From a virus (Duplodnaviria > Heunggongvirae > Uroviricota > Caudoviricetes): 64,000 bases of DNA. Shown piece after piece: positions 27,415-30,296 of this stretch (position 1 is the first letter of the stretch; the number at the start of each line of letters is the position of its first letter). Location of the stretch: IMG/VR virus record IMGVR_UViG_2718217789_000006. The stretch is one strand, 5' to 3'. The translations under genes were made by a program, and so were the position numbers. The notes under the pieces are model-generated. The model saw nothing but the letters and a program-made list of their open reading frames with translations, made no database searches and had not been told where the DNA came from.

Positions 27415-28101
27415 ATGACCCCAATAAAAATATTTATGACTATTGCTGATTTCAAACGGCCTAAATTGGAGCTCCCAAACGGGGCAAACAAACTACTACT
27501 GCACTCTTGCTGTGCTCCATGTTCCGGTGAAGTGATGGAGGCGCTTCAGGCCTCGGGAATCGACTACACCATCTTTTTCTACAACCCGAACATTCATCCT
27601 CAGAAAGAGTATTTAATTCGTAAGGATGAAAATATTCGCTTTGCTGAACAACACGGCGTGCCGTTTATCGATGCTGATTACGACACCGACAACTGGTTTG
27701 AACGTGCCAAAGGAATGGAATGGGAGCCTGAGAGGGGGATCCGTTGTACCATGTGTTTTGACATGCGTTTTGAGCGGACAGCGTTGTACGCTGCTGAAAA
27801 TGGTTTCAGTGTGATCAGCAGTTCACTGGGCATTTCACGCTGGAAAAATATGCAGCAGGTTAACGAGTGTGGGCGGCGAGCTGTTGCGCATTATCCGGGT
27901 ATGGTGTACTGGGATTATAACTGGCGCAAGCAGGGCGGCTCGTCCCGTATGATTGAAATCAGCAAGCGCGAAAAATTCTATCAGCAGGAATATTGTGGCT
28001 GTGTGTATTCTCTGCGCGATACCAATCTACACCGCAAATCTCAGGGACGCCCTCTTATCAAAATTGGCCAACTCCACTACGGAAAAGAAGAGAAGGAGTG
28101 A
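27415..28101 (+). CDS. QueH-like protein (DUF208, epoxyqueuosine reductase family)
   Basis: 228 aa; [11 protein letters not shown]...FFYNPNIHP...QEYCGCVYS motifs characteristic of QueH/DUF208 as recalled. Confidence 0.55.
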
Positions 28102-28279
28102 TTTTATGGATCACCTTTCTGATTGATTTCATATTGGCGAGGTGACGTGAGTTAAGTAGAATTGCTGCGGGTGCCTGAGGCTGTCTGCCTCAGGCATGAA
28201 CACCAAAAGGCAGATAGAGAAAGCCCCAGTTAACATTACGCGTCCTGTAAGACGCTCAACATTAATCTGAGGCATATGG

Positions 28280-29404
28280 ATGCGGATGAAAGAATTAAAT
28301 AAATTCAGAGTGATAGACCTCTTTTGTGGGGCAGGTGGATTATCTTATGGTTTTCTTCATGGAGAGATGTCTGACTACTTTGAAAGTATCCTTGCTATTG
28401 ATAATAATGCTGCAGCTATAAATACCTACAATGCCAATTTTGGTTTGCATGGAGTTCAGGCAAATATTGAGGAGTGGGCATCCAGCAATACTGTTCCTGA
28501 GGCTGATGTGGTCATAGGTGGCCCCCCGTGTCAGGGATTCAGTTTATTGAATAAGAATCGTTATGGTGATCACCGAAGAGCATTGTGGGAGCCTTATATG
28601 GATGTCATTGAGCGTTCAAGGGCTTGTATGTTCGTCATGGAAAATGTCCCCGGATTGCTGATAAGCGATGAGTTTGCGGACATTACGTTTAGAGCGAAAT
28701 CCATGGGCTTTATTCTGCTTAATCCAATGGTGTTGAATACTGCTGACTATGGAGTACCTCAGACAAGAAAACGAACGATAGCAATCGGTATCAAACGAGA
28801 ACTCTTCGATGTGCATAGTATTCCGGCGTTCCCGCCAGCACCAACGCATCGTTCCCCTGATAAGGATGTCGCTTTGCCTGAATGGGTCTGTACGCGTGAT
28901 GCAATTGGTGACTTACCTGCTCCTGTTGGAACTGATATTCGTAATGAACTTCCTCCGCTGAACTTACATTTTGGGCGTAATCCCACACCTGTTTCTCTGG
29001 AGCGATATAAAGCGGTTCCACCAGGAGGTAACCGTTTCGATTTACAGAAAAAAAGACCTGATATAACCCCGGCGTGCTGGCTAAAAAAGAAATCTGGAGG
29101 GACCGATTTGTTTGGACGTCTGTGGTGGGACAGACCTTCAGTAACGATTCGTACTGAGTTTTTCAAACCGGAGAAAGGGCGATATTTACATCCGGAAGAG
29201 GATCGGCCAATAACTCATCGTGAGGCAGCGAGATTAATGTCTTTTCCTGATAATTTCATTTTTACCGGTTCAAAAACTGAGATTGCAAAGCAGATCGGGA
29301 ATGCTGTTCCACCGCTATTTGCGGCAAAAATCGCACAATATGTGTATGGAGTTTTGCAGGGACGGTATAAGAATAACATCAGTAAGAATAGTCAAGCAGC
29401 CTGA
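28280..29404 (+). CDS. DNA (cytosine-5)-methyltransferase
   Basis: 374 aa; motif I FCGAGG, motif IV GGPPCQGFS (catalytic Cys), motif VI ENVPGL; AT-rich relative to phage backbone. Confidence 0.85.
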   Translation: MRMKELNKFRVIDLFCGAGGLSYGFLHGEMSDYFESILAIDNNAAAINTYNANFGLHGVQANIEEWASSNTVPEADVVIGGPPCQGFSLLNKNRYGDHRRALWEPYMDVIERSRACMFVMENVPGLLISDEFADITFRAKSMGFILLNPMVLNTADYGVPQTRKRTIAIGIKRELFDVHSIPAFPPAPTHRSPDKDVALPEWVCTRDAIGDLPAPVGTDIRNELPPLNLHFGRNPTPVSLERYKAVPPGGNRFDLQKKRPDITPACWLKKKSGGTDLFGRLWWDRPSVTIRTEFFKPEKGRYLHPEEDRPITHREAARLMSFPDNFIFTGSKTEIAKQIGNAVPPLFAAKIAQYVYGVLQGRYKNNISKNSQAA

Positions 29405-29417
29405 AGGAAATCCAGAA

Positions 29418-30296
29418 ATGAATGGAGATTTGGTTGACAGCATAGTTGGTTTTGCTGAAGCCAGAAAGGAGTTTCATGCCCAATTGTTACTGAATACGCT
29501 CACAATTAATACTGCCGGAGTTGTTAGTAACGCAGATAGCAGTAACAAAAACAGTAAAGCTATAGCAAGAGAAATTGCTCGCTTCTTGCAGGCTGAAACG
29601 ATTGGTGAACGTGTTGCAGGGCAAACATCTGGTAATCAGTTTGAGAGTATCTGCGCAGAGTTTATAGAAAAAACCTTTTTTAAACTCAGCCACTTACGCC
29701 CTGGAAAATGGAATGTACATCAGGTTTCTGGTAGAAACAGATTAGAGATAGCTAAATATGAACAATATGCCCATCTTATAGCATTGGATAGTGCTGCAAA
29801 AAGTAATCCTCAGCTAGCTGCTGCACTGGGGAGTGATTATACGATTTCACCAGATATTATTGTTGAAAGAGAACCTGAATGTGATCAAGTTATCAACAGT
29901 CCTGAATTACTGGTGGATGATTCTGTTACCCGCATGTCAGCTCTCAGGAGTTCGAATGGTGGGAAACCAATATTACACGCAAGTATTTCCTGCAAATGGA
30001 CAATAAGAAGCGACCGGGCCCAGAATGCTCGTTCTGAGGCATTAAATCTTATTCGCAACCGTAAGGGAAATCTCCCTCATGTAATGGTTGTTACTGCTGA
30101 GCCTACTCCAAGTCGTCTGGCGTCTATTGCTCTTGGTACTGGTGATATAGATTGCGTGTATCATTTTGCGCTTTATGAACTTATATCAGCAGTTGAAATA
30201 CTGGGGCTCAGCGATGCAGCTGACATGCTTTCCGTGATGGTTAATGGTAAAAGATTAAAGGATATTTCTGATCTTCCCTTGGATCTTGCAGTCTGA
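29418..30296 (+). CDS. Putative type II restriction endonuclease partner of the C5-methyltransferase
   Basis: 293 aa; starts 13 nt after the methylase stop with GAAGGA RBS; possible PD...(S/T)xK-type site (SPDIIVERE ... SISCKWT); assignment is inference from context. Confidence 0.35.
   Translation: MNGDLVDSIVGFAEARKEFHAQLLLNTLTINTAGVVSNADSSNKNSKAIAREIARFLQAETIGERVAGQTSGNQFESICAEFIEKTFFKLSHLRPGKWNVHQVSGRNRLEIAKYEQYAHLIALDSAAKSNPQLAAALGSDYTISPDIIVEREPECDQVINSPELLVDDSVTRMSALRSSNGGKPILHASISCKWTIRSDRAQNARSEALNLIRNRKGNLPHVMVVTAEPTPSRLASIALGTGDIDCVYHFALYELISAVEILGLSDAADMLSVMVNGKRLKDISDLPLDLAV

Follow-up and report, generated by a model that had tools for sequence, protein, structure and literature searches.

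Here, we analyse a cargo region (positions 27415-30296) in a 64,000-nucleotide stretch of Caudoviricetes DNA, IMG/VR record IMGVR_UViG_2718217789_000006, which is called the window as a whole in the following. In this region QueH, a C5 cytosine DNA methyltransferase and an NgoMIV-type nuclease are encoded by three intact plus-strand genes that lie between the replication genes and the DUF968/rusA/Q genes of a lambdoid prophage. We propose, with a probability of roughly 0.85, that these are two independent pieces of cargo, namely a functional NgoMIV-type restriction-modification (R-M) operon that sits in a former hok/sok transcription unit, and a captured QueH. The R-M pair is most likely a GCCGGC-specific type II system that would serve both defence and stabilization of the prophage.

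A first-pass annotation of the window had described the same three open reading frames (ORFs; QueH at 27415/27436-28101, methyltransferase at 28280/28286-29404, and nuclease at 29418-30296 behind a 13-nt gap and with a ribosome-binding site), and its placement of them between the replication genes and DUF968/rusA/Q agrees with the RefSeq annotation of an identical genome. It had also taken all three for one AT-rich island, and here the evidence leads elsewhere: the "island" consists of two unrelated acquisitions, an AT-rich R-M cassette and QueH. The guanine-plus-cytosine (GC) content is 44% in the methylase gene, 42% in the nuclease gene and 42.7% over the cassette (28274-30365), which belongs to the lowest 4% of equal-sized intervals across the 64-kb sequence. 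The description as AT-rich therefore holds for methylase and nuclease but not for QueH, which at 48% is near the prophage backbone (52%) and not clearly deviant. The two parts also differ in distribution, with QueH present in 995 and the R-M cassette in 60 of 5426 complete Escherichia coli genomes, and each is found without the other.

A type II R-M pair with an NgoMIV-family nuclease

The nuclease gene (29418-30296, plus strand) encodes 292 amino acids (293 codons with the stop) and aligns with 275 of the 275 positions of the Pfam profile NgoMIV_restric (PF09015, E 6.1e-127). Residues 12-292 match residues 5-286 of crystallised R.NgoMIV (PDB 1fiu/4abt) with E 9.6e-119, and PADLOC calls the protein REase_II. 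For the active site and the DNA contacts we mapped the NgoMIV residues onto the nuclease under the numbering that we take to be that of the structure paper. The active-site residues E70, D140, S185, K187 and E201 of NgoMIV are identical in the nuclease (positions 76, 146, 191, 193 and 207), and the motif R191-S-D-R194, which contacts the central CCGG, is kept as RSDR at 197-200 within a block, ASISCKWTIRSDRAQNARSE, that is identical to NgoMIV. Contacts to the outer bases are likewise retained, R227 as an arginine at position 233 and D34 as an aspartate at position 40. The PD...SxK signature that the first-pass annotation had guessed at corresponds to an SPD...SCK motif and is borne out by the mapped active-site residues. 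These matches place the protein unmistakably among the PD-(D/E)xK enzymes of the NgoMIV family. Its close homology and conserved contacts make G^CCGGC the most likely target, and by homology with NgoMIV it may cleave as a tetramer acting on two sites.

The nuclease gene begins 13 nt past the stop codon of the methylase gene, with an AGGA 8-9 nt upstream of its ATG. The methylase gene (28280-29404, plus strand) encodes 374 amino acids, or 372 from the PGAP start at 28286, and its product matches PF00145 (E 4.2e-54) and TIGR00675 (E 5e-45). The alignment contains the C5 methyltransferase motifs I (FCGAGG), IV (PPCQGFS), VI (ENV), VIII (QTRKR), IX (REAARLMSFPD) and X (GNAVPP), with the catalytic Cys in the PCQ of motif IV, and the PADLOC call is MTase_II. 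Adjacent, co-oriented, intact and co-inherited, methylase and nuclease together constitute a predicted type II R-M system. The proposal of such a module in the first-pass annotation is thus upheld by the full-length PF09015 match, the match to 1fiu, and the conserved active-site and recognition residues.

Compared with the NgoMIV system of Neisseria gonorrhoeae (type IIF/IIP, G^CCGGC), the pair shares a near-full-length nuclease with the mapped residues and the order methylase-then-nuclease on one strand. It differs in the methylase, which is longer (372 versus ~318 amino acids), only ~27% identical and of another C5 methyltransferase lineage. The window genes are also spaced by 13 nt instead of overlapping, have a GC content of 42% and are located in the hok unit of an enterobacterial lambdoid prophage.

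The R-M cassette occupies a former hok/sok transcription unit

The cassette lies inside a former hok/sok unit of which a promoter-like site, a 105-nt leader and the terminator remain, while the mok and hok ORFs are gone. The retained 5' leader of the hok/mok/sok type I toxin-antitoxin mRNA (28169-28273, plus strand) matches Rfam family RF01794 with 61 bits (gathering threshold 59); good alignment is confined to the 5' half of the model, the first ~105 nt, and the intact hok locus of E. coli EC8 scores 110.6 bits. Leaders with 93-95% identity to that of the window stand in front of mok/hok in HannyBb and Rac-SA53, both phages. The window leader ends in GAGG (28269-28272), the Shine-Dalgarno sequence that serves mok in intact loci. 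A sigma-70-like promoter, TTGGCG-17-TAGAAT (28134-28162, plus strand), was found by consensus scan, i.e., as a pattern match only, at the place expected for the hok mRNA promoter. It ends 7 nt upstream of 28169, where the Rfam match starts, and this position makes it a plausible candidate. Thousands of E. coli genomes, as well as phages including Rac-SA53, mEp460 and HannyBb, have conserved versions of the 170 bp between QueH and the methylase gene. In HannyBb the distance from QueH to the hok leader is longer by 372 bp (L002, 4788-5159), a segment that the window lacks.

The extent of the replacement is apparent from alignment with the "empty" site of E. coli EC8, where the order is QueH, hokD, small ORF and DUF968. 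The low-GC cassette (28274-30365, plus strand) stands in place of the mok/hok coding region; its left junction immediately follows ...AATCTGAGGC (28273), and homology with EC8 returns from ~30366 at the hok terminator hairpin. This intrinsic terminator (30369-30395, plus strand; 7-bp stem at 30369-30385 followed by a T tract) aligns with the hok terminator of EC8 and is the only terminator-like site in 27150-30800. A tblastn search with HokD found no intact hok ORF in the window, its best result being a chance match with E 3.7. A short segment at 30318-30342 (plus strand) is tentatively a decayed remnant of hok codons; its local alignment to the hokD codons of EC8 scores 25.5, a value reached by one of 300 shuffles. 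Two further Rfam candidates were discarded, a RyhB-like match at 30335-30392 (E 0.28), which is just the hok terminator, and a DABA-DC-AT match (E 0.25), which is noise. Searches for repeats flanking the cassette gave short chance matches only, with neither a target-site duplication nor inverted ends.

Relative to hok/sok loci of the hokD/relF type in lambdoid prophages and on plasmid R1, the window thus keeps, at 93-95% identity, the promoter region, the terminator and ~105 nt at the beginning of the leader, and it lacks the mok and hok ORFs. The stretch that would hold the Sok promoter, whose position we assume by analogy with plasmid R1, is also missing. The methylase ATG at 28280 stands 7 nt past the leader GAGG, at about the position of the mok start in intact loci, and for this reason the operon probably uses the hok promoter and the mok ribosome-binding site.

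Occupancy of the site by hok and by the R-M pair is mutually exclusive among the prophages compared. Both flanks lie within ~1.1 kb of each other in 629 E. coli genomes, and hokD is annotated between QueH and DUF968 in all 30 of the 30 genomes listed. Among 80 IMG/VR prophage contigs with an identical QueH, 56 carry hok and 20 carry methylase and nuclease, and none carries both. In E. coli A34, the segment shared with the window is exactly leader, cassette and terminator (window positions 28157-30387), located in another prophage, where its neighbours are sce7726/beta genes and QueH is missing. The hok-flanked R-M unit therefore moves between different lambdoid prophages, presumably by homologous recombination through the conserved hok flanks. 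In A34 (L094, 1373-3008) and in phage Rac-SA53 (L003, 990-2625), hok is preceded by a pair annotated as "sce7726 family" and "beta family" instead of QueH; this pair may be another cargo module at the hok position.

A variable cargo slot between hok and DUF968

The right edge of the variable slot is marked by a conserved 90-amino-acid ORF (30467-30739, plus strand) of PHROG 1212 (E 8e-36, unknown function; no Pfam match), directly followed by DUF968 (30741-31790; PF06147, E 2.5e-77). In the six sibling prophages examined, a 92-amino-acid ORF of conserved sequence has the same position upstream of DUF968, whatever cargo lies to its left. Between hok and the PHROG 1212 ORF these siblings have nothing, a lipoprotein-like ORF, insertion sequences or a RosmerTA pair. 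The RosmerTA pair (L127, 5225-6959; RmrT E 5e-25, RmrA E 6e-105) occurs in a sibling with an identical QueH and an intact hok. The contents of the slot support a role in defence or conflict for arriving cargo, in line with the established concept of prophage defence hotspots.

The methylase belongs to another lineage than the usual NgoMIV partners

For a view of the usual partners of such nucleases, we took 80 loci with nuclease relatives (59-78% identity) from species-representative genomes and inspected ten of them. In all ten NgoMIV-family loci, a C5 methylase of ~318 amino acids that starts with MSQFTSLE(I/M)CAGAGGQALGLE is encoded immediately upstream of the nuclease, and two of these methylases were confirmed as PF00145. 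The window methylase has ~27% identity to them, in the catalytic motifs only, and shares no target-recognition region with them; it does not qualify as a cognate methylase of the M.NgoMIV type. By these alignments it is placed outside the M.NgoMIV lineage, which is one modest surprise of the analysis.

Close relatives of the window methylase (66-81% identity) are widespread in Enterobacterales and other gamma-proteobacteria, and vary hardly at all in the target-recognition region. Methylases with 70-75% identity are likewise cargo in P2-like prophages of Yersinia kristensenii (L088) and Psychromonas (L089), located with their partner between the gpA replication gene and the portal/terminase genes. 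The partner here is an unrelated HNH nuclease of ~330 amino acids (PF01844, PHROG 119; L088 5100-6092, L089 4654-5640) instead of a PD-(D/E)xK enzyme, and a PvuRts1I-like gene is located near the methylase in the Yersinia prophage. One methylase lineage thus serves two nuclease folds, NgoMIV and HNH, and the NgoMIV fold serves two methylase lineages; such shuffling of methylases and nucleases is known in R-M evolution. The near-invariant target-recognition region suggests that the window methylase and its relatives in P2-like prophages probably have the same specificity, and the HNH and NgoMIV-type enzymes may be non-homologous nucleases that are guarded by the same methylation.

As its relatives pair with differing nucleases, the specificity of the window methylase cannot be read from homology. 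In the resources searched, its target-recognition region had no characterised relative; the best PDB match, 3g7u, is an uncharacterised "Cytosine-specific methyltransferase" and the names in databases are generic. The RIMS-seq2 paper gives GCCGGC only for an unrelated metagenome-assembled genome. That the methylase would protect GCCGGC is argued solely from the need to guard the host against a conserved, intact nuclease.

Spread and selection of the R-M pair

All 60 cassette-bearing E. coli genomes (~1% of the 5426) carry it on the chromosome, and 59 of the copies have at least 99% identity. The hosts include O157:H7, O111, O103 and O39 as well as commensal and clinical strains. The two ORFs are intact in each of the 60 genomes, and among the cassette copies listed both genes are annotated with no pseudogene flag. 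The diverged copy is that of E. coli A34, which is 97.4% identical to the window cassette. Between the two, synonymous codon changes exceed non-synonymous ones in both genes (19:9 in the methylase, 14:5 in the nuclease), which indicates that the pair is under purifying selection.

The same methylase-nuclease pair is found in a lambdoid prophage of Klebsiella michiganensis (loci L085-L087) at 80% amino acid and 72% nucleotide identity, with both ORFs open; persistence of an unselected nuclease ORF at this divergence is unlikely. Gene order, low GC content and the location just upstream of DUF968 and Q are as in the window. The setting differs, as no hok leader or terminator surrounds the Klebsiella pair, its neighbours are DinI and a LexA-like repressor, and QueH is absent; R-M thus occurs without QueH in both A34 and Klebsiella. 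On plasmids, no place covered 80% of the cassette, and the best matches (~66% identical) were mostly NgoMIV-family nuclease genes. None of the deposited phages has cassette DNA in common with the window, and a homologue of the nuclease was found among them in one faecal phage fragment only (56% identity). A PstI-like type II R-M system reportedly is lysogenic cargo of the lambdoid Shiga toxin (Stx) 2 phage of O104:H4, and is said to differ from the present one in enzyme family, target site and insertion point. Our search of the open-access literature found no paper on this R-M system, its replacement of hok, or a prophage QueH, and the long-read study that sequenced O157:H7 strain 9000 does not discuss the R-M system.

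QueH is a separate cargo gene

QueH is encoded at 27436-28101 on the plus strand (221 amino acids; alternative ATG at 27415). As the first-pass annotation had it, the protein is a member of the DUF208/QueH family: it matches PF02677 with E 1.1e-65 over 174 of 175 profile positions, and the motifs quoted there are present. RefSeq names it epoxyqueuosine reductase QueH (WP_000150294.1), a name that NCBI uses across Enterobacteriaceae, while its PHROG (3217) is listed as "unknown function". In the alignment with Thermotoga maritima QueH (PDB 7lc5, E 8e-22) the CC, CxxC and CxC motifs correspond (CCAPC, CTMC, CGC); a YCGCVYS motif is also present. The consensus scan found no promoter-like site upstream of the gene.

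The prophage protein is 78-86% identical to NCBI-assigned QueH proteins of many Enterobacterales. The two of these contexts that we examined are non-phage. In Erwinia (86% identity), the gene lies between a purL-type FGAR amidotransferase gene and a cluster of sensor kinase, sigma-54 regulator and P-II genes, and in Providencia (84% identity) it adjoins a TmcA-type gene, with a SAICAR synthetase gene nearby. Like these core proteins and T. maritima QueH, the window copy has the full-length PF02677 domain and the cysteine motifs; it differs from core QueH in being prophage-borne. An identity of 84-86% to core QueH favours the canonical activity over a new role, and the suggestion in the first-pass annotation of a recruited fold with a new function is unlikely on these grounds.

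Of the complete E. coli genomes, 18% have QueH, nearly all of them as a single copy, and IMG/VR has at least 190 contigs that carry it; in most related prophages it is next to hok without R-M. Its description as unexpected in a phage of E. coli is therefore half right: the gene is common in E. coli prophages and named by NCBI, and it is nearly absent from deposited phage genomes, where HannyBb, annotated as hypothetical, is the only clear case. In agreement with this rarity, a 2019 survey of viral 7-deazaguanine genes reported no QueA, QueG or QueH homologue in the viruses analysed (PMC6884629). QueH is a separate, older cargo gene, a captured housekeeping gene that is not part of the R-M cassette.

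The host's own queuosine pathway presumably uses QueG, an enzyme that depends on cobalamin; E. coli has no de novo synthesis of this cofactor, and QueH works without it. Most likely, the prophage QueH would convert epoxyqueuosine to queuosine in host tRNA without cobalamin, beside QueG, and since QueG is cobalamin-dependent and QueH is not, the prophage would thereby supply a B12-independent route to queuosine. More tentatively, and at somewhat less than even odds, QueH may be a true lysogenic-conversion gene for translation that, where B12 is scarce, alters the queuosine/epoxyqueuosine (Q/oQ) status of the tRNAs for Asp, Asn, His and Tyr. A second and smaller novelty would be the R-M operon, which appears to be grafted on hok promoter, leader and mok ribosome-binding site and whose methylase lineage serves two unrelated nuclease folds.

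Proposed mechanism and alternative explanations

Judged by homology, the nuclease would cut unmethylated GCCGGC, and the methylase would modify a cytosine within the site, shielding the chromosome and the prophage. The prophage has eight GCCGGC sites, so that the methylase would be needed for its self-protection. Going by the behaviour of the family, incoming unmethylated phage or plasmid DNA would be cleaved, which would amount to defence or superinfection exclusion, and a host that loses the prophage would face the nuclease left behind, the basis of addiction. One post-segregational killer would have been swapped for another.

Several points weigh against this proposal. Target specificity, methylated base, expression in the lysogen and restriction of phages are all read from sequence. 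The target-recognition region of the methylase is non-homologous to that of the usual NgoMIV-partner methylases, and its protection of GCCGGC is argued from tolerance of the nuclease. The hok promoter is a consensus match, and the scan gave five sites as compared to a mean of 6.1 in shuffled sequence; in addition, it placed none in front of QueH. Finally, the window contains 14 GCCGGC sites where a Markov estimate predicts 41, but we rejected this avoidance as evidence of restriction pressure, as GGCGCC, GGGCCC and CGCGCG are similarly depleted.

One alternative is to regard all three genes as one module, in which QueH would take part in 7-deazaguanine DNA chemistry, for example by modifying phage DNA so as to complement or evade the R-M system. 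The genes are adjacent and on the same strand, and 7-deazaguanine modification of phage DNA is an established anti-restriction strategy (PMC6884629). The distributions, however, are independent (995 versus 60 genomes), QueH is beside hok without R-M in 56 of the 80 viral contigs, and A34 and Klebsiella have R-M without QueH. A DpdA-type phage 7-deazaguanine system has a transglycosylase and preQ0 genes, but the identical prophage region has 56 annotated features and none of them is DpdA/TGT, FolE, QueD, QueE or QueC, which leaves QueH as the only gene of the pathway in the prophage annotation. QueH is close to core tRNA-pathway orthologues (84-86% identity), and the hok leader, the promoter-like site and a change in GC content separate it from the R-M genes. 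A single module is therefore very improbable, and a link of QueH to 7-deazaguanine DNA chemistry, which the first-pass annotation had considered, is very unlikely in view of the missing pathway genes and the distribution independent of R-M.

A second alternative is that the pair is a decaying remnant devoid of restriction activity, with the methylase in effect an orphan or anti-restriction enzyme and the nuclease silent or inactive. The methylase is of a different lineage than the canonical M.NgoMIV partner, so that the two specificities could mismatch. Orphan methylases are common in phages, and the prophage has a second methylase at 33570-34628. As 59 of the 60 E. coli copies are nearly identical, decay would also have had little time to become visible. 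Yet all mapped catalytic and recognition residues of the nuclease are intact, synonymous changes outnumber non-synonymous ones in both genes relative to A34, and the pairing is kept in Klebsiella at 72% nucleotide identity, too diverged for an unselected ORF to stay open. If active but mismatched, the nuclease would be lethal; if inactive, it would gather lesions. We consider decay improbable.

The pair could also be mainly a selfish addiction element that stabilizes the prophage in the role of hok, with no meaningful anti-phage benefit. It stands in the exact place of a post-segregational killer and has taken over its expression signals, and type II R-M systems are established post-segregational killers (PMC3874152). 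As the target has six bases, is GC-rich and is in any case rare in E. coli-like DNA, the effect on coliphages would be limited. Addiction and defence are, however, not mutually exclusive; RosmerTA, a recognised anti-phage system, is in the same slot of siblings, and the methylase lineage adjoins a PvuRts1I-like gene in the Yersinia P2-like prophage. Addiction without defence is rather unlikely on balance, though less so than the other alternatives, and we retain the proposal of a functional R-M operon serving both ends in the former hok/sok unit, with QueH as independent cargo.

Carrier prophage and neighbouring features

Over positions 27262-30400, the chromosome of E. coli O157:H7 strain 9000 and many "Z" isolates from the United Kingdom (UK) agree with the window at 100% identity. 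RefSeq names for QueH, methylase and nuclease already exist in the identical O157:H7 genomes, and the RefSeq annotation of the surrounding 43 kb in the identical genome is that of a lambdoid prophage. Its gene order starts with the integrase (16861-18156), followed by exonuclease, dicB and ydf genes and by the repressor region with YdaT. The middle part comprises O-like and P-like replication genes, DUF1627, DUF977, QueH, the DNA cytosine methyltransferase and the NgoMIV-family endonuclease, and the right part a small hypothetical ORF, DUF968, RusA, Q, the second methylase and genes for lysis, head and tail.

The second DNA methyltransferase (33570-34628, plus strand; N6/N4 type, PF01555, E 7e-44) lies downstream of Q without an adjacent nuclease and appears to be an orphan late-region phage methylase that is distinct from the R-M pair. 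Directly after it and upstream of the DUF6645 gene, the small RNA STnc100 has a strong Rfam match at 34708-34908 on the plus strand (RF02076, 148 bits at a threshold of 47). The DUF6645 protein is encoded at 35132-37078 (plus strand), downstream of Q, at a position that we take to be the one where Shiga toxin genes are expected in Stx phages; the annotation of the 43 kb examined has no stx gene.

The window as a whole contains two tandem lambdoid prophages with near-identical tail regions (1-16800 versus 46300-63000), and the integrase has annotated tail genes to either side. A fixed distance of ~46.3 kb separates recurring GCCGGC sites (2121/48430, 4791/51091, 7893/54193, 13070/59371). Such tandem prophage repeats are substrates for the large rearrangements reported in this O157:H7 lineage. 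Three consecutive DUF1076 genes (14279-16279, plus strand), a family that we assume to be that of the NleG effectors, close the upstream prophage and have the lowest GC content of the window (~38%), below that of the R-M cassette.

Implications

Gene families, mechanisms and prophage defence hotspots as encountered here are all established, and current understanding is not overturned. The R-M system is an NgoMIV-type nuclease with a non-canonical methylase in a hok unit, and it illustrates cleanly how in nature one addiction module has taken the place of another under unchanged expression signals. With hok, RosmerTA, R-M and insertion sequences as alternative contents, the interval between QueH and DUF968 is a variable cargo slot of lambdoid prophages. 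If the R-M system is active, ~1% of the complete genomes of E. coli are equipped with a mobile restriction barrier at GCCGGC, including the UK O157:H7 strain 9000 lineage, O111, O103 and O39. It could then affect phage typing, the uptake of other prophages including Stx phages, the 5-methylcytosine methylome and the stability of the carrier prophage. If the proposed role of QueH is true, ~18% of E. coli harbour a phage-borne gene specific to tRNA queuosine, of a class that the viral survey did not find (PMC6884629), and with a B12-independent queuosine route supplied by a prophage, phages would influence host translation in a new way.

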